The notes beneath the pieces are model-generated. The model had not been told where the DNA came from and did no database searches. It saw only the letters and a program-made list of their open reading frames with translations. From an uncultured Solirubrobacteraceae bacterium (GTDB taxonomy: Bacteria; Actinomycetota; Thermoleophilia; Solirubrobacterales; Solirubrobacteraceae), in assembly GCA_963701175.1 (NCBI GenBank), contig OY969573.1:385232-449231 (forward strand): DNA of 64,000 nt. Direction: 5' to 3'. The first letter of the stretch is position 1. Each line of letters opens with the position of its first letter. Of this stretch, positions 35,293 to 46,193 are shown one piece after another. Made by a program: the position numbers and the translations under genes.

Positions 35293-35673
35293 CTAGCGCG
35301 CGCCGCCCGGCCCGCCGAGCAGGTGGACGTCGACCAGCAGCGAGCGGCTGCCCACGATCTGCACGAGCTCTCCGACGCCGCCCGAGTCTCCCCGCCGGCC
35401 CACGCGCCGGCGGCGTTGGCTCCGGGAGACGGCGGCGGCCCGCCGGTGGCGCCGTTGGACGAGGCCGATGACGGCCGCCCCCGCCACGAAGCCGCCGGCG
35501 GCAGCGGCAGCGGCCTGGACCGCGGGTGCGACCGCTCCACGTCGCAACAGGGCCGTGGAGCCGTCCGGCCCGGGCGGCTGCAGCCGGTCGTCCCACACGG
35601 GGACCGCGTCGACCACCTCGCCGTCGCCCCCCGGACCGTGGCCTTCGCTGGCTGGAATGCGCTCGGAGCTCAC
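35293..35673 (-). CDS. small hypothetical membrane protein
   Basis: one TM stretch AAAAAAGGFVAGAAVIGLV; C-terminal SRSLLVDVHLL. Confidence 0.6.
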   Translation of the reverse strand: MSSERIPASEGHGPGGDGEVVDAVPVWDDRLQPPGPDGSTALLRRGAVAPAVQAAAAAAGGFVAGAAVIGLVQRRHRRAAAVSRSQRRRRVGRRGDSGGVGELVQIVGSRSLLVDVHLLGGPGGAR

Positions 35674-35705
35674 TCCCGGCCAAGTCTAGACTTCGAGCCG
35701 GGGCC

Positions 35706-36836
35706 CTACTGCAGCAGCAGCGGTCGCTCGTATACGCGGTAGCGCTTGACCACGCGCCCGCCCATGCCTTCCATGCCGCGGTTCATGGCGGTGTTGGTCT
35801 CCAGGATCCAGCCCATCTCGCCGCCGTCCTGAGGGGTTCGTTCGGCAGCGTCGAAGTGCGCCTCGTAGAGCGCGGCGGCGACGCCCGTGTGCTGGTGCTC
35901 CGGTTTGACGCCGAGGAAGCCGACGCGGACGCGGTCCATGCGCCTCGACTTGGTCAGGAACTTCCACCAGCCGAGCGGCAGCAGGCGCCCGCCCATCTGC
36001 TCGAGCACCTGGTTGAGGTCGGGGACCGTGATCGCCATGCCGACGACCTCGCCCGTGTCCTCTTTCTCGGCGACCATGAACCAGTTCTTGTCGAAGGCCA
36101 GTTGAAGGTCCAGGTGGTAGGCGTCGAGGTCGGCCTTCGAGTAGGGCACGAAGTCCCAGTTCTCCGCCCAAGCGGTGTTGTAGACCGAGGCGAAGAAGTC
36201 GAGGTCCTTTCGCAGCTGGCGGCGGCGCATCGGCCGGATGCGGATGTGGTGCTCGCTGCGCGACTTCTCCGCGAGCTCCCAGATCACGGGCAGCACCTTC
36301 TCGCGTCCGGTCACCTCGAGGTTCCACATCAGCAGGTCCATCGCCTTGGTCATCCCGGCCTGCTCCATCATCTGCGGGTACCAGGGTGGGTTCCACGTCT
36401 GCAGGATCATCGGGCGCAGATCGAAGCCCTCGATGAGCATGCCACCGTCGTCGTTGAGCGCAAAGCTCGCCGGCCCGAGCATGCGCTCGCAGCCGTGTTC
36501 GCCCAGCCACGTCTCGGCGGCGCCGAGCAGCGCCTGCAGGACCGCGGCGTCCTGCTCGAACTCGATGAAGCCGAACCAGCCCCAGCGCGTGTTGTGGTGG
36601 TCGTTGAAGGCGTGGTTGATGTGGGCGGTGATACGGCCCACCACGCGCCCGTCGCGGCGGGCGAGGAAGTACTCGCCTTCGCCGTGCGTGAAAAAGGCGT
36701 TGAGGCGCCTGCTGAGGAACAGCCGCCGCTCCAGCTTCAGGGGAGGCACCCACAAGGGGTGGTTAGCATGGAGCCGGTAAGGCAGGTCGATGAAGGCCTT
36801 GAGGTCGCGCCCGCCCGAGACCGCCCTTACGTCCAC
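35706..36836 (-). CDS. double-GNAT acyltransferase, bacterial ceramide synthase (bCerS)-like
   Basis: FIDLPYRL...WVPPL, GRITAH.N, GWFGF.E, GP..F..ND..G.LIEGF, WNPPWYP, WILETN..M; divergent from an SPT-like gene; GTG start 36836. Confidence 0.75.
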   Translation of the reverse strand: MDVRAVSGGRDLKAFIDLPYRLHANHPLWVPPLKLERRLFLSRRLNAFFTHGEGEYFLARRDGRVVGRITAHINHAFNDHHNTRWGWFGFIEFEQDAAVLQALLGAAETWLGEHGCERMLGPASFALNDDGGMLIEGFDLRPMILQTWNPPWYPQMMEQAGMTKAMDLLMWNLEVTGREKVLPVIWELAEKSRSEHHIRIRPMRRRQLRKDLDFFASVYNTAWAENWDFVPYSKADLDAYHLDLQLAFDKNWFMVAEKEDTGEVVGMAITVPDLNQVLEQMGGRLLPLGWWKFLTKSRRMDRVRVGFLGVKPEHQHTGVAAALYEAHFDAAERTPQDGGEMGWILETNTAMNRGMEGMGGRVVKRYRVYERPLLLQ

Positions 36837-36858
36837 AGCCACAAGGCAGGCAGCGTAC

Positions 36859-38178
36859 ATGCGCACCCACATCGACGTATTCGCCAAGGCCCGCGACCAC
36901 GAGCGCAGCGAGGTGCTCGCGGCGGCCCGTGAGATCGACGTGCTGCCCTACTTCCGCCTGCTCGACTCACCGGCGATGCCGGTGGTGGAGATGGAGGGAG
37001 CCCCGCGGATCATGCTCGGCTCCAACAACTACCTCGGCCTGACCGCCGACGAGCGGGTGCTGAAGGGGGCCGAGGACGCCCTCCACCGCTACGGCACCGG
37101 CCTGACCGGCTCGCGCCTGCTGAACGGGACGATCCCGCTGCACCTCGAGCTCGAGCGCGAGATCGCCGACTGGATGGAGACCGAGGAGGCGCTGGTGTTC
37201 AGCACCGGCCACCAGGCCAACGTGGGCACGCTCGGCACCCTGCTGGGACCGGGCGACACGGTCGTGGTGGACTCCGGCGACCACGCCTCGATCCTCGACG
37301 GCTGCCTGCTCTCGCGGGCCAAGCTGCGGCCCTTCCGCCACAACCGGCTGGACAAGCTCGAGAAGATGCTCGACCGTGCCGCCGACGACGGCGGCGGGGT
37401 GCTGGTGGTCGTCGACGGGGTCTTCTCGATGGAGGGGGACCTGGCCCCACTGGCCGAGATCACCGAGCTGTGCCGGGCCTACGGGGCCCGTCTGATGGTG
37501 GACGAGGCCCACGGCGCCGGCGTGCTCGGCGCCCGCGGGGCCGGCGCCTCGGAACTGCTGGGCGTGGCCGATCGGGTGGACCTGAGGATGGGCACGTTCT
37601 CGAAGTCGCTGGCCTCCTGCGGTGGCTTCGTCGCGGGCACCCACGAGGTGATCGACTACCTGCGTTTCTCCTCCCGCGCCTTCCTGTTCACCGCCTCGGC
37701 CGTGCCGGCCGCGGTGGGGGCGGCGCTGGCGGCCCTGCGGGTGCTGCGCGGCGAGGACGGCCCGAGGCTGCTCGAGCGGGTGCTCGACAACGCCTGGAGG
37801 CTGCACGACGGGCTCGCCGAGCTGGGCTTTGCGGTGTCGGCCGAGCAGTGGCTGCCGGCCGGCGGAGGGGCCCAGGATCACGCCCCGGGGGTCCGCTCCG
37901 ACGGCGCCGGGCGGCCCAGGATCGTGACGCCGATCATCTCGGTGCTGGTGGGCGACGACTGGCAGGCCGCCCTGCTGTGGCGGGCCCTCTACGACGAGGG
38001 CGTGTTCGTCAACACGGCCCTGCATCCGGCCGTCCCCCCGGGCGGCGCGCTGCTGCGCACGAGCGTGATGGCGACCCACGACGAGGCGACCCTGGACCGA
38101 GCGCTGGACGCCTTCGAGCGGGTCAAGCGGGACTTCGAGGCCGAGCACGGCCCCCTGCCCTCGGCCCGTCCGGAGTGA
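36859..38178 (+). CDS. spt: alpha-oxoamine synthase, serine palmitoyltransferase-like
   Basis: PYFR, MLGSNNYLGL, GSRLLNGT, DGVFSMEGD, DEAHG, PLP lysine in GTFSKSLAS; no neighbouring bio genes. Confidence 0.72.
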   Translation: MRTHIDVFAKARDHERSEVLAAAREIDVLPYFRLLDSPAMPVVEMEGAPRIMLGSNNYLGLTADERVLKGAEDALHRYGTGLTGSRLLNGTIPLHLELEREIADWMETEEALVFSTGHQANVGTLGTLLGPGDTVVVDSGDHASILDGCLLSRAKLRPFRHNRLDKLEKMLDRAADDGGGVLVVVDGVFSMEGDLAPLAEITELCRAYGARLMVDEAHGAGVLGARGAGASELLGVADRVDLRMGTFSKSLASCGGFVAGTHEVIDYLRFSSRAFLFTASAVPAAVGAALAALRVLRGEDGPRLLERVLDNAWRLHDGLAELGFAVSAEQWLPAGGGAQDHAPGVRSDGAGRPRIVTPIISVLVGDDWQAALLWRALYDEGVFVNTALHPAVPPGGALLRTSVMATHDEATLDRALDAFERVKRDFEAEHGPLPSARPE

Positions 38179-38268: not shown

Positions 38269-38297
38269 TTGACCGCTGGGTACGACTGACGTAGCTT
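38269..38297 (+). promoter_or_regulatory. sigma-A type promoter TTGACC-N17-TAGCTT, overlapped by inverted repeat CGGTCAA-N8-TTGACCG (38254-38275)
   Basis: read directly; lies about 180 bp upstream of mihF. Confidence 0.6.
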
Positions 38298-38476
38298 GCC
38301 GATGCGCTCTGCACGGCCGTTGAGTCTCTGCCAAGGTCCAAGGAGGCGGAGGAGACGCGAAGGTGGTACCGCGCCCCAAAGCGGACCCACCCGCATGCCG
38401 TTACGGGCGCGACCGTCCAGAAAAACCGCTAGAAGGTCGCCCCGCAGGAAGCGCGGAGGCGACGGGGAGTTTGCCC

Positions 38477-38854
38477 ATGAACGCGACAGCTACGGTTCCC
38501 CCTGCCGGCCCACAGCACATGCGCGCACTCGAACGCGCCAACCAGGTCCGCCTCGCCCGTGCCGAGCTGAAGAGGCGCATCGCCGACGGCGAGGTCGACG
38601 TTGCGGGAGTGATCCTCGACTGCCCGTGGGAGGCCAACAGCATGGCGATCTCCGACCTGCTGATGAGCCAGCGCCGATGGGGTCAGACTCGCTGCCGCAA
38701 ATTCCTGGCCCAGATCCCGCTGTCCGAGAACAAAACGGTCGGCTCCCTCACCGAGCGTCAGAGCCGACGTCTGGCGGAGCTACTCGAGTCGGGTGAGCGG
38801 GGCCGCGCCTGGAGCGCGACCCCCTGGCTAATGGACAGCCCGACGAGAGCTTGA
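38477..38854 (+). CDS. mihF: actinobacterial integration host factor (mIHF/sIHF-like, H2TH)
   Basis: ALERANQVRLARAELKRRI...ISDLL...WGQTRCRKFL..I.LSE.K.VGSLTERQ; SD GGGGAG before ATG 38477. Confidence 0.78.
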   Translation: MNATATVPPAGPQHMRALERANQVRLARAELKRRIADGEVDVAGVILDCPWEANSMAISDLLMSQRRWGQTRCRKFLAQIPLSENKTVGSLTERQSRRLAELLESGERGRAWSATPWLMDSPTRA

Positions 38855-39394: not shown

Positions 39395-39458
39395 CACTTC
39401 CCCGACCGGCGCTCCCGGCACTTCCCCGACCGGCGCTCAGGGCACTTCCAGGGCGCTC
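39395..39458. repeat. 24-bp tandem repeat (about 2.7 copies) CACTTCCCCGACCGGCGCTC
   Basis: copies begin at 39395, 39419, 39443; spans the stop codon of the B3/4 gene. Confidence 0.85.
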
Positions 39459-40102
39459 GCGGCGCTCCACAGGGCCTCCTCGGCGAACAGCCTCGGGACG
39501 CCGGCGACCTGCACCGTGAACAGCGTCACCAGGTGCGTACCGGAGCGGGGAGCGTGGGCCGCGACGGGGTCCTCGAACAGGACCGCGAGCGCGTTGTGGC
39601 TGTCCGCCACCACCAGCCGACCGGCCGGCAGCAGCTGGCCGCCCCGGGCCGCTCCGAGCCGCTCGCCCTCGACGCTCTCCCGGATCCCGGGCGGGCCGTC
39701 GAGTGTCTCGGTGGCGAGCGCCCACACCGGCACACCGGTGTCGGCGAGGGCGATCAGCAGCACGTCGGCGAGCAGCCCCCCGGTGGGGAACCCGCCCCGG
39801 ATCATCCGTTCGAGCACCGCCGTCTCGATCGGCGTGCGCACGACGTCGGGGTCCAGGCCGATGTGGCGGAAGAAGACGCGGTAGGCCGCCGGCACCGGCT
39901 CGAGGCGGATGCTCACCGCGCGCGCTCCCCTGAATCGGCTCGAGCGCTCCCGCAGGCGGTGGCGGATGTCGGGCGGGGAGGCCCCGGTGAGGGAGCCCCG
40001 GCGGGCGACCTCGACGTCGGCGAGGAGCAGTCTCAGCGAGGGCAGCTCCTGCACCACCTCGGGCGCCCGCCAGCCGACGGTGGGTGCCGCGGCGCCGCTC
40101 AC
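39437..40102 (-). CDS. B3/B4 (PheT-like) domain protein
   Basis: AYRVFFRHIGLDPD..RTPIE, LLADVLLIA..DTGVP, LVVAD motifs. Confidence 0.75.
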   Translation of the reverse strand: MSGAAAPTVGWRAPEVVQELPSLRLLLADVEVARRGSLTGASPPDIRHRLRERSSRFRGARAVSIRLEPVPAAYRVFFRHIGLDPDVVRTPIETAVLERMIRGGFPTGGLLADVLLIALADTGVPVWALATETLDGPPGIRESVEGERLGAARGGQLLPAGRLVVADSHNALAVLFEDPVAAHAPRSGTHLVTLFTVQVAGVPRLFAEEALWSAASALEVP

Positions 40103-40157
40103 GGGACCGCGCCCGGGTCCACGACCCGCCGGCCCCGGCTCCGGGGGGTCGCGCCGC

Positions 40158-40960
40158 TCACGCGCCCGCCGCTCCGTGCCAACCGCGCTCCCGTGAGGCC
40201 GCCACCAGGGACGCGACCCGCGAGCGCAGCGCCGCCGCGGTGGGGGTGGCGAGCAGCGCCCGGCTCTGCACCCTTCCTCCCGGGTAGGCGAAGTCGACCT
40301 GGGGGCAGCTGAGGACTTTGTAGAGCGAGGCCAGCGCGCCGTCGGCGTCGATCCCGACCGGCAGCGTGAGGCCGTCGCGGGCGATCAGGTGGCGCAGGTC
40401 CGAGCGGCTGCCCTTGATCGAGACGGCCGCGAACTGGACCCCCGGGAAGGAGCCTTTGAGCGCCTGCATCTCGCCGAGCACCCGCGGGCAGGAGCGTTCG
40501 TTGACGAACATCGCCAGCACCAGCGGGCCGCGTTCGACGAGCTGGCAGACGTTGAGGACCTGGCTCCCGCGCACGGTGCACGCCGGCACGTTGCCCGATT
40601 CGCCTTCGTGTGCGTGCCTGGCGATGTTCGCGTCGCCCTTCAGCGTGCCGCTCGCGAGCGGCACCGCGAACGGTGGCACCTGCTTCCCGGGTTCGATGCC
40701 CCGGAGTTCGCTCGGATCGTGCAGCAGCGAGGTTGCGATCAGTGCCACCAGCGCGACGACGGCCACGATCCCCAGCAGGGGGCCCTGGCGCAGGCTGCTG
40801 CGGGTCAGCCGGCCGCGATCCCGGCCGGTCCCCCCGGTCCGCTCCGGCCGCGGCCGTCACGGCCACCTCCACGCCCACCCGACCCGCCGGCGCCGTCCCG
40901 ATCCGTGCCGGCGGGGTCGACGGCCCGCTTGCCCAGGAACAGCCGCTCACGCGGGCTCAT
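40158..40960 (-). CDS. membrane-anchored thioredoxin-fold protein; probable frameshift in a G6 run at 40830-40835
   Basis: PPFAVP, LPVGIDADG, CPQVDF; the ATG at 40960 overlapping the MMPL stop is one base out of frame with the 202-aa body. Confidence 0.6.
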
Positions 40961-43676
40961 GTCCGGAACCCGCCGCTCGGGCGCCGAAGCCCACCCGCGC
41001 CAACAGCCCGCCCGGAGCGACCGAGCGTCGCAGGGGCCGGCGCTCCGGGCTCCCGTAGGCGACCATCAGGGCCGCCGGAAGGGCGATCAGCACCCCCAGC
41101 AGCGAGGCGCTGAGGTCGATCAGGGTGACCAGTCCGAACTGGCGCAGCATCTCGATTTCCGACAGCGCCAGCACGCCGAAGCCGGCGATCGCGGTGACGG
41201 CCGAGGCGGCCACGGCGGCGCCGGTGCGCTCGTAGGCGCGTCGCAGCGCCTGCACCGTGGAGAGGCCGGCCAGACGCTCCTGACGATGGCGCTCGGACAG
41301 CAGCACGCTGAACTCCGTCGAGAGGGCCACCACCAGCACCCCGAGCGTGACCGACATCGGGTTCAGCGGGACCCTCACGGCGAACAGGATCAGCGCCGAC
41401 CAGCCGGAGGCGAGCGCGACCGGGACGAGCGGGACGAGCACCCGCCGGCGGTCGCCGCGGAACGCCACCGCCAGCACCAGCGCGACCGCCAGCAGACCGG
41501 CCAGGAGCCCGAGCAGGCGTCGCCAGGGGTCGGCCACCTTCGCCCCCGAGCTGGACGCCAGCACCGGCAGGCCCACGAGGCTGGCGGTGACACCCGCGGG
41601 CGGGTGCAGGCGCGAGCGCATCGCTTCGATCACCCGCTGCTCCTGGGAGAGGCTCATCAGGCGCACCCCGAAGGCGAGCGTGGCCTCGCGGTGGTCGCCG
41701 GTGATCACGTCCTGGGAGAAGTACGGCGGGATCACCTTCAAGAGCCCTTCCACCTGGCCCGAGCTCAGCTTGCCGGTGCCGGAGCTCCCGGCGCTCTCCC
41801 CCGAGAACAGGTCCGGCAGCGAGAAGGCCGGGCACAGTCGCGCCTTCCCGCAGCCGTGGGAGGAGTTGAAGCCGAAGTGCGAGAGCACCGCCCGCTCGTA
41901 GGAGCTCATCCATTCGATCGTCGCCGGCCGTGCGACGTCGCTGCCGGATACGAGCAGGTCGATTTCCCCGCCCACGCCGCTGGTGTGCTCGAGCGTCTGC
42001 AGCGCCTGCAGCGAGCCGAGGTTCTGGGGGACGAGCTTGGTGATGTCGGTCTGGACGCTCGTCTGGGTATCCAGCGCCCACCCCGCCAGCGCGAGCACCA
42101 GCCCGATCCACAGCACCCGCCGGGGATGGCGCACGGCGCTCCCGAGTGCGACCCCCGACAGACCCCGCGTGAGCGGGTTGTCGCGCAGCAGCGTCCGGGC
42201 GCCCCGCCAGCTCGCTCCCAGCGGCCCCCGGGAGAGCGACGCGCGAGCGCCACCGAGCCGCCCGGAGGCGTTCGCGTCCCGACCGGCGCCGGCTTCGTCG
42301 CGCCGGCAGCTCAGCGCGAGTGCCGCGGCCCCCGCGGTGAGGGTCGACAGCAGGGCCAGGGCGAGGCCGACGACCAGCAGCACCGCGAAGCCCTGGACCA
42401 TCGGCACCGGGGAGAGCAGCAGCACCAGGATCGCGGCGCCGCTGGCCGCGGCGGCGGTCGCGATCGTGGGGGCGCCCCGCGCGGCGGCGCGGGCGATGCG
42501 GGCCGCCGGGTCGCCGGGCACGGGCTCGCTCTCCCCCACCCGCGCCTGGAACTGGATCGCGTAGTCGACCGACAACCCCACCAGCACCGGAAGCACGGCG
42601 ATCGAGGCCATCGTCAACGGCGCCCCCACCAGCGCCAGGGCGCCGAAGGTCAGCGCCGTGGCCAGCCCCGCCAGCGCCAGCGGCAGCAGCCGGGGGCGCT
42701 CGGTGAAGACCAGCACGAGCGTCGCCGCCATCACGACCGCGACCGCCACCAGCAGCAGCAGGATCGCGTGCGAGAGCTTGCTGGTGAGGTCCCCGACGAC
42801 GACCGGCCCACCGGTGACGAGGTAGCTCTCGCCGTTGGCCAGGTGCCACTGGGGCATCGCCACCGCTTCCCGCACGAGGGCGATCGTGCGGTCCCTGCGG
42901 GCCTGGGAGAGCCCGGCCTTCATCCGCACCGACACCAGCGCCGCTTCGCGCCCCGGAAACAGGTAGGCCAGCTTTGCCCGCGGCGTGCCGGCGGGCTTTT
43001 CGGGGGCGAACACCAGCGAGGAGACGAAGTTCGTGTCCTGCAGGCTCGGCTTCGAGGTCAGCCCGTACTGCAGCGCGAGCGTGACGATCCCCTCCTGGAA
43101 GCGGGCCATCCAGATCTGCCGCGCCTGGCGGCCGAGTTCCGCCGCCCGCGCCGCCCCCAGCCCCCTCGCGAGGGCGGCCTGCGAGACCACATGGGCGGCC
43201 TCGGCGGCCTGGGCTTCGGCGCTCTTGGTCTGGCTTGCCAGCTGTTCGTCGATCACTTCGGTGGCCTCGTTGACGAACGTGCCGGGGCCGAACACGACCT
43301 TGATCGTGTGCGCCGCGGCGAGCTTGCCGCATGGTCCCGAGACCCCGCCCTCGGCGGGCAGCGCGGATGCCGGGACGTTCCCGGACAGGCACCCCTCGAG
43401 CCCGAGCAGGCGCTCGAGGTCCGAGCTCAGCACGAGCTTCTGCAGGTTGCCCTTGACGAGCACCTCGATCGGTTCTTCGCCAAAGCCGCGGTAGTAGCGC
43501 TGGGTCTGGCGGTATTCGCTGCTCGAGCTCGACACCAGCGTGCTGGCCGCGGCGCTGGGCCGCAGCGACAACGCGAGCGCGACGGCGCCCGCCGCCAGCA
43601 GGATCGCCACCGGCAGGACAACCCGTGGCCGCCTCGCGGCGCCCCCCGCGAGCGCGGACAGCAGCCGGGAGCTCAC
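40947..43676 (-). CDS. MMPL/RND-family transporter
   Basis: two periplasmic-loop plus TM halves, GLSVDYAIQ, LSTEFSVLL, FGLVT; GTG 43676 overlaps the ATPase stop. Confidence 0.88.
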   Translation of the reverse strand: MSSRLLSALAGGAARRPRVVLPVAILLAAGAVALALSLRPSAAASTLVSSSSSEYRQTQRYYRGFGEEPIEVLVKGNLQKLVLSSDLERLLGLEGCLSGNVPASALPAEGGVSGPCGKLAAAHTIKVVFGPGTFVNEATEVIDEQLASQTKSAEAQAAEAAHVVSQAALARGLGAARAAELGRQARQIWMARFQEGIVTLALQYGLTSKPSLQDTNFVSSLVFAPEKPAGTPRAKLAYLFPGREAALVSVRMKAGLSQARRDRTIALVREAVAMPQWHLANGESYLVTGGPVVVGDLTSKLSHAILLLLVAVAVVMAATLVLVFTERPRLLPLALAGLATALTFGALALVGAPLTMASIAVLPVLVGLSVDYAIQFQARVGESEPVPGDPAARIARAAARGAPTIATAAAASGAAILVLLLSPVPMVQGFAVLLVVGLALALLSTLTAGAAALALSCRRDEAGAGRDANASGRLGGARASLSRGPLGASWRGARTLLRDNPLTRGLSGVALGSAVRHPRRVLWIGLVLALAGWALDTQTSVQTDITKLVPQNLGSLQALQTLEHTSGVGGEIDLLVSGSDVARPATIEWMSSYERAVLSHFGFNSSHGCGKARLCPAFSLPDLFSGESAGSSGTGKLSSGQVEGLLKVIPPYFSQDVITGDHREATLAFGVRLMSLSQEQRVIEAMRSRLHPPAGVTASLVGLPVLASSSGAKVADPWRRLLGLLAGLLAVALVLAVAFRGDRRRVLVPLVPVALASGWSALILFAVRVPLNPMSVTLGVLVVALSTEFSVLLSERHRQERLAGLSTVQALRRAYERTGAAVAASAVTAIAGFGVLALSEIEMLRQFGLVTLIDLSASLLGVLIALPAALMVAYGSPERRPLRRSVAPGGLLARVGFGARAAGSGHEPA

Positions 43677-44521
43677 TCCATTCCGAGGGGGCCCACCGAT
43701 TCGCCGGAGAGGAACTGGCGCACGAACGGGTTTTCCGATGCAAACAGATCCTGGGCGGGCCCGGATTCGACGATTCTCCCCTTCCACAGCACCGAGATGT
43801 GCTCGGCCACCCGGCGGGCGCTCATGATGTCGTGGGTGATGACGACGTAGCAGCCCCCGTTCTCGGCGTGGACCTCCTTGATCAGCTCGCACAGCAACGC
43901 CGTGCGGACCGGGTCGAGGCCCGAGTCGGGCTCGTCGAAGAGCAGGATCTCAGGGTCCAGCACCAGCGCCCGCGCGAACCCGGCCCGCTTGCGCATCCCG
44001 CCGGAGAGCTCGTTGGGCATCTTCTCGTTGGCGTCCCCGAGGCCCACCTCGTTGAGGCGTCGATTGACGATCTCGGCGATCTCGTCCTCGCCCTTCTCGG
44101 TGTGCTGGCGCAGCGGGAAGGCGACGTTGTCGTACAGGCTCAACGACCCGAACAGGGCCCCGTCCTGGAACAGCACGCCGAATTTCCGCCGCAGCGTGAA
44201 CAGCTCGTTGTCGCTCAGGCTCGGGATCGAGTGGCCTTTGACGATCACGTCGCCCTCATCGGGGTACAGCAGCCCGACGATGTGCTTGATGCACACCGAC
44301 TTGCCCGTCCCGGAGGGGCCGATGATCATCGAGATCTTGCCCTCGGGGAGCCCCATGTTCAGCCCACGCAGGACGTGGTTTTTGCCGAACGACTTGTGGA
44401 CGTCGACGAACTCGATCGCGTCCGGCACACCGGTCTCGCGGATCACGCCGGTGTGGAACTCGAAGTTCTCCCCGCCGCCGTCCCCGTCGGAGGGGGAACG
44501 CTGGCGCTCCTCGGTGGCCAT
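43673..44521 (-). CDS. mkl: Mkl/MlaF-type ABC ATPase
   Basis: GPSGTGKS, FQDGALF, LSGGMRKR, DEPDSGLDP. Confidence 0.9.
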   Translation of the reverse strand: MATEERQRSPSDGDGGGENFEFHTGVIRETGVPDAIEFVDVHKSFGKNHVLRGLNMGLPEGKISMIIGPSGTGKSVCIKHIVGLLYPDEGDVIVKGHSIPSLSDNELFTLRRKFGVLFQDGALFGSLSLYDNVAFPLRQHTEKGEDEIAEIVNRRLNEVGLGDANEKMPNELSGGMRKRAGFARALVLDPEILLFDEPDSGLDPVRTALLCELIKEVHAENGGCYVVITHDIMSARRVAEHISVLWKGRIVESGPAQDLFASENPFVRQFLSGESVGPLGME

Positions 44522-44529
44522 CGAGCCTC

Positions 44530-45330
44530 CTAGCCGCCGATCGGGGCGCGCGCGTTGTTGCCCCAGAAGACCTGTGTCCCGAACATATCGATCAGGTTAA
44601 CGAGCACGAGATTGAGCACCATCGACTTGGCCGTCGCGCGACCCACGCCGACGGGGCCGCCACTTGCGTTGTATCCGTAGTAGCAGCCCACGAGCACGAT
44701 GCAGGTCGCCATCGTCATGCCCTTGATCACGCTGAAGAGGTAGTCGCCCGGGTTCTGGAACTGCCAGAAGATCAGCAGGAACCCTCCTTCGGAGACGTAC
44801 CCGACCTGGTGCACGATCGCTATGTAGGAGGCTAAGTAGCCGACCCCCACCGCCGCGATGTACATGAACGGCAGCACCAGCCACGCCGCTGCCAGGCGGG
44901 TCGCGCACAGGAAGGTCATCGAGTTGATCCCCATCACCTCGAGCGCGTCGATCTCGTCGGAGATGCGCATCGCCCCCAGCTCGGCCACGATCCCGGTGCC
45001 GACCTTCGCCGAGAGCATGTACCCCCACACGATCGGGACGGCCTCCCGCAGGTTGCACCAGGCGGCGAACACGCCGGAGTAGGCGGGAGTGCCGGTGGAC
45101 TCGTTGAAGTAGGCGGCCTCGATCCCGCAGGTGCCCAGGCCGGTGATGAACACCAGGGCCCAGATCACGAGCGTGGAGTAGATGATCAGGATCCCCGCCT
45201 GGCGGAGGGTCTCCCCGAAGAAGTGGAACGCCTGCCCGGTCCACACATCGCGGATGACGGTTCCGGCAAAGCGGGCGATCTCGCCGGTCCCGGCGAGCCA
45301 TTCCCGCGGCATGCCAAGGAGTTCGCCCAT
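44530..45330 (-). CDS. yrbE: MlaE/YrbE permease B
   Basis: SAKVGTGIVAELGAMRISDEIDALEVMG; GYNASGGPVGVG. Confidence 0.9.
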   Translation of the reverse strand: MGELLGMPREWLAGTGEIARFAGTVIRDVWTGQAFHFFGETLRQAGILIIYSTLVIWALVFITGLGTCGIEAAYFNESTGTPAYSGVFAAWCNLREAVPIVWGYMLSAKVGTGIVAELGAMRISDEIDALEVMGINSMTFLCATRLAAAWLVLPFMYIAAVGVGYLASYIAIVHQVGYVSEGGFLLIFWQFQNPGDYLFSVIKGMTMATCIVLVGCYYGYNASGGPVGVGRATAKSMVLNLVLVNLIDMFGTQVFWGNNARAPIGG

Positions 45331-46137
45331 CTATTTGATGACCAGGATCTGGGGGTGGGTGGCGAGCAGCGTCTGCGTGAACACGTAGTTGAAGGCGCCG
45401 ATGCCGAGGAACGAGACAACGACGGCTTCGTTGACCGCCCGGCCGACCCCCTCGGCGCCCCCGGAGGCGGTCATGCCCTTGTAACAGCAGACGATCGCGA
45501 TGATGGCCCCGAAGACCGTCGTCTTCAGCACCGACCCCCACAGGTCGGTGACGGACGAGTTCGCGAACAGGGTGTTCCAGAACGGCCCCAGCGAGCCACC
45601 CTCGTAGAGCTCGGCGAGCAGGCCGCCGAAGAGGCCGAACAACACCGCGTAGATGTCGAACAGGCCGGTGACCACCATCAGCGTCAGGAAGCGGGGCACG
45701 ACCAGGTTCTTGACCGGGTCGACGCCCAGCACCTGAAGGGCGTCGAGCTCCTCGCGCACCTTGCGGGCGCCGAGGTCGGCGGTGATCGCCGTCCCGGCCA
45801 CCCCCGCCAACACGATCGAGGTCACCAGCGGACCGATTTCGCGGATCGACGCCAGCACGAAGAAGCCACCGAGGCGGTCCAGGGCTCCGAACAGCGTGAG
45901 GAAGTCGCCCGCCTGGAGCCCCGGGGCCCCGTAGCTGATGGCGACCGTGGAGATCAGCAGCGGCAGCCAGCACAGCCGCAGCGTGAACAGGAACTGCGAT
46001 ACGAACTCGCCGCCGTAGGGGTAGGGCGGGGACAGCGCCGACCAGATCGTCTTGCCCGTCAGGATCATCATGTCCCCGAATTCCTCGAGCACATGGCTGA
46101 CGGGCACAAAGGCCCGCTGGGCAGCGGTGCGAACCAT
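45331..46137 (-). CDS. yrbE: MlaE/YrbE permease A
   Basis: REIGP, AGTAITADLGARKVREELDALQVLG, SGGAEGVG. Confidence 0.9.
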   Translation of the reverse strand: MVRTAAQRAFVPVSHVLEEFGDMMILTGKTIWSALSPPYPYGGEFVSQFLFTLRLCWLPLLISTVAISYGAPGLQAGDFLTLFGALDRLGGFFVLASIREIGPLVTSIVLAGVAGTAITADLGARKVREELDALQVLGVDPVKNLVVPRFLTLMVVTGLFDIYAVLFGLFGGLLAELYEGGSLGPFWNTLFANSSVTDLWGSVLKTTVFGAIIAIVCCYKGMTASGGAEGVGRAVNEAVVVSFLGIGAFNYVFTQTLLATHPQILVIK

Positions 46138-46193
46138 CCTCCTCTGGACTCTCCTCCGTATCCGGCGCTGACGCTGGGCTCAAACTGTACGAC

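Follow-up and report, generated by a model that had tools for sequence, protein, structure and literature searches.

Two head-to-head genes of an uncultured Solirubrobacteraceae bacterium, lying within a 64,000-nt stretch of contig OY969573.1 (assembly GCA_963701175.1, positions 385,232 to 449,231; the whole stretch is hereafter called the window), are likely to encode the enzymes for the first two steps of bacterial ceramide synthesis. One of them specifies an alpha-oxoamine synthase (AOS) that is a probable serine palmitoyltransferase (Spt), the other a two-lobed N-acyltransferase of the GNAT type that is a probable bacterial ceramide synthase (bCerS), and the lineage, judged from its gene sequences, probably makes sphingolipid-type lipids. 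The original prediction, drawn from the letters of the window alone, had described an AOS with PYFR and GTFSKSLAS motifs head-to-head with a 376-amino-acid (aa) double-GNAT protein. Both genes and both motifs are where it placed them, and the two homology checks that it proposed agree with its reading, as the synthase groups with Spt and not with BioF or Kbl, and the GNAT protein proved to be a full-length homologue of YghO and of the Caulobacter bCerS. The host genome is a single contig of 3.93 Mb with ~72% GC and is 93.9% complete. The pair is laid out as follows:

36859..38178, plus strand (ATG 36859 to stop 38178): spt-like gene encoding the AOS, 439 aa (P0002:24-462), Aminotran_1_2 domain, probable serine palmitoyltransferase
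35706..36836, minus strand (GTG 36836 to stop 35706): gene of the bCerS/YghO-family two-lobed GNAT N-acyltransferase, 376 aa (P0001:18-393), probable bacterial ceramide synthase
36837..36858, no strand: 22-bp spacer that separates the start codons of the divergent genes, read from the sequence

Family placement of the two enzymes

The synthase, which carries the Pfam domain Aminotran_1_2 (E=1.4e-52), scores highest against Spt in NCBIfam, in the PDB and on the E. coli BL21 chromosome alike. Among the NCBIfam models, Spt BetaP (387.6 bits) and Spt CFB (380.4) come ahead of bioF (335.8), Kbl (335.0) and Spt AlphaP (314.8), none of these five matches reaching its curated cut-off, with the ALAS and CqsA models weaker (219 and 189 bits). 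The best PDB matches are the SPT of Sphingobacterium multivorum (305 bits) and the Sphingomonas SPTs (~276), followed by ThAOS (235), Kbl (231) and a cysteate acyltransferase (28eh, 205.5), and in E. coli BL21 the order is Spt (242 bits, 40-45% identity), Kbl (171) and BioF (154). Moreover, E. coli Spt and the window AOS are each other's best match, E. coli Spt matching it ahead of the second AOS of the genome, which is BioF-like (425 bits to TIGR00858) and falls elsewhere in the tree. In this maximum-likelihood tree of 26 sequences, which has no named references besides three from E. coli, all of the GNAT-linked actinobacterial AOS (13/13) form one clade with E. coli Spt (support 100/99), and the Kbl-like and BioF-like paralogues lie outside it.

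Two other members of the AOS family have to be considered at this point. A housekeeping function as BioF or Kbl, with a GNAT gene beside it by coincidence, seems to us barely credible for the synthase: both models do still reach ~335 bits, but the genome has the separate BioF-like gene just mentioned, the window gene lies outside the BioF and Kbl clades, and its adjacency to the GNAT gene is conserved across classes. It is also very improbable that the synthase is a cysteate-C-fatty acyltransferase and that the pair makes sulfonolipids of the capnine/sulfobacin type. The AOS family does include cysteate acyltransferases, one of which (28eh) is among the PDB matches, and sulfonolipids are N-acylated too; however, this enzyme scores 100 bits below SPT, and the partner GNAT protein matches bCerS specifically.

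The active site was mapped by HMMER alignment to the S. multivorum structures 8GUH and 3A2B, and the features of the synthase to which we refer are these:

36946-36957, plus strand: PYFR motif, residues 30-33, an SPT-type N-terminal motif
37591..37617, plus strand: GTFSKSLAS motif, residues 245-253, with K249 as the Schiff-base lysine of the pyridoxal phosphate (PLP) cofactor, aligned to SPT structures
37846..37923, plus strand: Gly/Ala-rich insertion of ~26 aa separating the central from the C-terminal domain, from the alignment

The 13 active-site residues of S. multivorum SPT taken from PMC10196870 (Tyr27, Asn52, Tyr54, Gly80, Ser81, His138, Ser185, Asp210, Ala212, His213, Thr241, Ser243 and Lys244), which apart from Tyr27 and Ala212 are listed as holding PLP and L-serine, are all kept in the window AOS, and so is Arg390 of the Sphingomonas paucimobilis enzyme. 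The GTFSKSLAS motif aligns to Thr241, Ser243 and Lys244 of the former, while K249 corresponds to Lys265 of the latter; the motif is identical in E. coli Spt, the counterparts in Kbl and BioF being GTLGKAL and VTFGKGF. Overall, the synthase most resembles the soluble SPT of the S. multivorum/Bacteroidota type, which is its best structure match, shares all the listed active-site residues and the Y-F-R motif near the N-terminus, and likewise has an H/SPAVP loop instead of the RPPATP loop of Sphingomonas. It differs from this type in the ~26-aa insertion before the C-terminal domain, which is missing in E. coli Spt as well as in the PDB SPTs (the PDB match splits in two there). About 9 aa of the insertion are common to all aligned Thermoleophilia orthologues, and the further ~17 Gly/Ala-rich aa occur, among the aligned sequences, only here.

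Turning to the partner, Pfam finds Acetyltransf_1 in its N-terminal half and a weak Acetyltransf_7 match in its C-terminal half, and searches of NCBIfam and of the PDB sequences gave no match. Compared with YghO of E. coli BL21, it aligns end to end (residues 1-373 of 376) at 33% identity (E=6e-72), and it is the sole YghO homologue in the host genome; across six sequences of the family, YghO included, 41 alignment columns are invariant. The C-terminal lobe holds a Q-x-x-G-x-A acyl-CoA motif (QHTGVA), as read from the sequence. The structure that AlphaFold modelled from 17 aligned sequences (predicted local distance difference test, pLDDT, 81; predicted template-modelling score, pTM, 0.80) has a two-lobed GNAT fold. 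In the Swiss-Prot set of the AlphaFold database, its first match is YghO (template-modelling score, TM, 0.86; 34% identity), and its second is the 'Bacterial ceramide synthase' A0A0H3C8X0 of Caulobacter vibrioides NA1000 (TM 0.85, 32% identity over 380 aligned residues). Two Caulobacter locus tags bear on these names, CC_1154 and CCNA_01212, the second of which we take to be the NA1000 name of the first. In PMC9386255, yghO of E. coli BL21(DE3) (ECD_02850) is the 'aca' counterpart of CC_1154, a gene named cerS in PMC11324152, and PMC9393093 gives bcerS as CCNA_01212 (NA1000). Sequence and model together make the GNAT protein a probable bacterial ceramide synthase.

Next in the model search are the two-lobed GNATs of the MshD type (TM 0.54-0.61, 14-20% identity), which share the tandem-GNAT architecture; MshD is, however, shorter (~300 aa) and has an unrelated substrate. 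We ruled out an assignment to MshD, the likeness being one of fold and not of family. Separately, 14 of the 20 sampled genomes of another family (f20, 1.3-2.0 Mb) encode weaker, partial homologues of the GNAT protein (26-29% identity over residues 45-283) and have no Spt-like AOS; these are probably a paralogous family with another role.

Distribution and linkage of the pair

The GNAT family occurs in 46 of the 301 sampled Actinomycetota genomes. All 11 sampled genomes from the window's order have it, as against none of the 11 from other orders of the same class, and 10 of the former 11 also have a close relative of the AOS, which in nine is adjacent to the GNAT gene and divergent from it. A four-sequence GNAT alignment used as query gave the best 80 loci from public genomes, all belonging to Thermoleophilia. 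The divergent adjacent pair is present in 60 of them, with the AOS 3.7 kb off in one more, and two cultured strains, Conexibacter stalactiti KCTC 39840 and Conexibacter sp. CPCC 205762, are among the carriers. Since the same divergent adjacency recurs in 60/80 loci and in 9/11 genomes of the order, the head-to-head arrangement is not a matter of chance. Three more families of actinobacteria likewise have the two genes next to each other or at most 5 kb apart.

Among the relatives within the same phylum, the Rubrobacteraceae (f18, recognised as such by the names of its proteins) have the same Spt and bCerS families, with 35-37% identity between the GNAT proteins and the AOS in the same clade. 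Here, the genes are co-directional and run in the order of a gene of ~380 aa, Spt, bCerS and a CerR-like NAD-dependent epimerase (L005:5959-10572, L009:3533-10401). The epimerase is 31-32% identical to E. coli Epi/CerR over its full length, and the predicted operon is the canonical spt-bcerS-cerR arrangement. Unlike the Rubrobacteraceae, in which the CerR-like gene directly follows bCerS, the Solirubrobacterales have the divergent pair only. For the first gene of the operon, neither a Pfam match nor a homologue in the host genome was found. Of the two Rubrobacteraceae loci, one (L009) continues with genes for a GT4/monogalactosyldiacylglycerol (MGDG)-synthase-like glycosyltransferase and an LPG_synthase_TM protein, and the glycosyltransferase suggests that ceramides may be glycosylated in Rubrobacter.

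A different arrangement is seen in a family with small genomes of 1.8-2.2 Mb (f58; L004:6453-12129, L006:264-6969), where a patatin-like lipase, a CDP-alcohol phosphatidyltransferase and a lipid A-type acyltransferase are encoded between the Spt-like and bCerS-like genes. These intervening genes may form a module that provides the head group of a phosphosphingolipid or remodels the lipid.

The missing reductase and the proposed pathway

Several observations weigh against reading the pair as the start of a ceramide pathway. The synthase falls under every cut-off of the NCBIfam Spt models (387.6 against 500 bits for BetaP, 314.8 against 670 for AlphaP, and 380.4 against 640 for CFB, the last being a further difference from S. 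multivorum SPT), which are built per taxon and none of which covers Actinomycetota; the AOS orthologues of Rubrobacteraceae and f58 are likewise under these cut-offs. The three E. coli references of the tree have long branches, and references for ALAS and CqsA are not included in it. Arg378 of S. paucimobilis SPT is replaced by Leu, yet this position is also Leu in E. coli Spt and Val in S. multivorum. As for linkage, 19 of the 80 loci have no AOS match of >300 bits within 8 kb, four of these having weaker partial matches, and G045, a 100% complete genome of the same family, carries a GNAT homologue (59% identity) with no AOS of any kind, BioF included, at E<=1e-30. The coupling of Spt and GNAT is thus not absolute; in G145, a congener of G045, both genes are present and unlinked. 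Finally, with E. coli Epi and the Rubrobacteraceae epimerase as queries, no CerR orthologue was found in the host genome (93.9% complete) or in the 11 genomes of its order, and the textbook three-gene pathway of Spt, bCerS and CerR is therefore incomplete here.

What these queries did return in the host genome and the order were paralogues of 60-87 bits, except for one match of 117 bits in G262. The best match in the host genome is the C-terminal short-chain dehydrogenase/reductase (SDR) domain of an 858-aa Aminotran_3-SDR fusion, and was rejected, the reciprocal best matches in E. coli and in G271 (Rubrobacteraceae) being other genes. The 117-bit match in G262, as well as a stronger 'CerR-like' match in G028, a genome outside the order, belong to the same fusion family and are not CerR. 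NCBIfam apparently has no CerR model, as E. coli Epi itself matches it weakly (HpnA, 95 bits). A CerR-like gene lies within 8 kb in none of the 80 loci, and the gene families conserved around them (NMT1, VWA, ABC permease, GGDEF/EAL, TauE, glyoxalase and Rrf2) include no reductase.

The original prediction had noted that neither cerR nor an acyl carrier protein (ACP) gene adjoins the pair. This is borne out: the neighbours are an HhH-GPD glycosylase gene and an mIHF-like gene, and the one PP-binding (ACP) gene of the whole genome lies at 3.47 Mb, ~3 Mb away. Its suggestion of '(oxidised)' ceramides is aptly worded, because the genome-wide search for CerR which it recommended found no orthologue, while the production of ceramides itself still has the standing of a prediction. 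AcpR gave no tblastn match in the host genome, and AasR gave weak generic matches only. Considering the single ACP gene, the lack of AcpR and AasR, and the Bacteroidota-like character of the synthase, acyl-CoA is the probable acyl donor; in this respect, too, the acyl-CoA-using S. multivorum type fits the genome.

In Caulobacter crescentus, the pathway consists of Spt (CC_1162), bCerS/CerS (CC_1154) and CerR (CC_1164), together with AcpR and AasR, and the annotated cluster of E. coli BL21(DE3) consists of yghO followed, divergently, by aasR (fatty acyl-AMP ligase), epi (epimerase), acpR (ACP) and spt. The window shares their first two enzyme families (bCerS/YghO 32-34% identical over the full length, TM 0.85-0.86; E. 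coli Spt 40-45% identical and in the same clade), and yghO of E. coli BL21 is also divergent from the spt operon. In contrast to both systems, no CerR orthologue, AcpR or AasR was found here, the pair is isolated, with 22 bp between its genes, and the host is a monoderm actinobacterium without an outer membrane.

From homology, active-site residues, phylogenetic placement and linkage, we infer which substrates are used and what product results, and likewise the hydroxylation and what becomes of the 3-oxo group, as follows. Spt would condense L-serine with a long-chain acyl thioester, probably acyl-CoA, to 3-ketodihydrosphingosine, and the GNAT protein of the bCerS/YghO family would N-acylate this intermediate to a 3-oxo ('oxidised') ceramide; this order of steps, Spt and then bCerS, is the one proposed for Caulobacter (Stankeviciute 2022, via PMC9386255 and PMC10191378). 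A hydroxylase of the Scs7/FA2H type would probably add a 2-hydroxyl to the amide-linked acyl chain. The 3-oxo group would be either retained or reduced by a non-orthologous enzyme, for which OleD-like SDRs are candidates.

The putative hydroxylase is the product of the sole FA_hydroxylase gene of the genome (G000:C1:1135804-1136499, L110), which matches yeast Scs7p (PDB 4zr1) with E=4e-29. Scs7p is the ceramide fatty-acid 2-hydroxylase of yeast. Orthologues of the Scs7/FA2H-like gene (58-66% identity) directly follow the GNAT gene in four loci (L035, L038, L042 and L075). Cultured Solirubrobacter are Gram-stain-positive and contain >10% iso-C16:0 2-OH along with unidentified amino- and phospholipids, according to PMC10722151, and these 2-hydroxylated chains are circumstantially consistent with an amide-linked 2-hydroxy acyl chain. 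With slightly less than even confidence, we propose that the Solirubrobacterales use a CerR-less route of Spt, bCerS and an Scs7-type 2-hydroxylase, leading to a 3-oxo-(2-hydroxyacyl)ceramide or, via a recruited reductase such as an OleD-like SDR, to a ceramide, and that this route would explain why cultured Solirubrobacter is rich in iso-C16:0 2-OH and has amino- and phospholipids of unidentified structure.

Two extended SDRs resembling OleD, one encoded at G000:C1:1345714-1346694 (231 bits) and one as the C-terminal domain of 1357021-1359597, are speculative substitutes for CerR. Their lipid-related surroundings (G000:C1:1345001-1363000, L017) encode the OleD-like homologue of 3-oxo-lipid reductases, two cyclic-nucleotide (cNMP)-binding patatins, one of them fused to a major facilitator superfamily (MFS) transporter, an LPG_synthase_TM protein and a SnoaL protein. 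The same neighbourhood contains the 858-aa class-III aminotransferase fused to an OleD/HpnA-like SDR.

Alternatively, the pair might make a non-sphingoid N-acylated amino-ketone, formed by a synthase that takes Gly, Ala or some other amino acid, or whose acyl donor is short or unusual, and then capped at its amine by the GNAT protein. The synthase scores below all curated Spt cut-offs and has a clade-specific insertion, CerR was not found in the host genome or its order, and SPTs accept Ala and Gly at low efficiency (PMC10196870), all of which would fit such a product. However, the serine-anchoring and PLP residues are kept, the synthase lies inside the Spt clade, its partner is a full-length homologue of bCerS, both families occur with a CerR-like gene in Rubrobacteraceae, and a ceramide-type 2-hydroxylase gene is linked to the pair in relatives. 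On balance, we consider a non-sphingoid product unlikely and a ceramide-type product the better reading of the pair.

To our knowledge, bacterial sphingolipids have been studied almost only in Gram-negatives, in which their place of action is the outer membrane. The Solirubrobacterales, by contrast, are monoderm actinobacteria that abound in soil. If they do make sphingolipids, these lipids would have a role in an envelope without an outer membrane, and the order would be an unrecognised source of 'bacterial ceramide' signals from soil. If the CerR-less route is correct, sphingolipid producers would include one of the most abundant lineages of Gram-positive soil bacteria, and the consistent lack of CerR would mean either that 3-oxo ceramide is the end product or that another reductase took over the step. 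Of these findings, the CerR-less state and the connection with 2-hydroxy fatty acids deserve further attention. The pair itself is a further example of the known Spt/bCerS system, and its enzymes are ordinary members of known families. Ceramides were reportedly found in Streptomyces aurantiacus by Stankeviciute and colleagues. The original prediction had called sphingolipids rarely documented in Actinomycetota; although the pair is real, its novelty was overstated, since several Gram-positive Actinobacteria had already been predicted to be sphingolipid producers in 2022 (Stankeviciute 2022, Nat Chem Biol 18:305, via PMC12134224).

Gene starts, spacer and neighbouring genes

Both start codons given above agree with the alignments of orthologues, that of the AOS fitting the N-termini of its relatives (MP..TDVF.KAR.HER). 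For the GNAT gene, an alternative ATG at 36860 would give a protein of 384 aa and a 2-nt overlap with the ATG of the AOS gene. A consensus scan detected no sigma-70-like promoter in the 22-bp spacer, and the scan for promoters and terminators gave nothing usable. A spacer without such a promoter suggests that the promoters of the divergent pair lie within the adjoining coding sequences or that the mRNAs are leaderless.

On the 3' side of the GNAT gene is the HhH-GPD glycosylase gene, which, like the gene flanking the AOS, has no tie to lipid synthesis. Beyond a gap of ~300 bp on the 3' side of the AOS gene, a small gene on the plus strand (ATG 38477 to stop 38854) encodes a protein without a Pfam match, which by eye we take to be a DNA-binding protein of the mIHF/sIHF (integration host factor) type. 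This mIHF-like gene, which has an upstream region of its own of ~300 bp, is kept beside the spt-like gene in 56 of the 80 loci. Two open reading frames flanking the pair, 35293-35685 on the minus strand and 38296-38796 on the plus strand, were set aside as apparent frame artefacts of high-GC DNA because their translations are of low complexity and have no relatives.

Further along the window, on the 3' side of the spt-like gene and convergent with it, lies a minus-strand operon (39437-46179) for a YrbE/Mkl-type ABC system, an MMPL/RND transporter and a protein with a thioredoxin fold. Synteny of parts of this operon with the pair holds in 39-54 of the 80 Thermoleophilia loci, and L008, from another family of the order, shows it too. 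The operon could serve to export the lipid made by the pair, but as the mIHF-like and HhH-GPD genes are equally syntenic, its position may be inherited gene order only.

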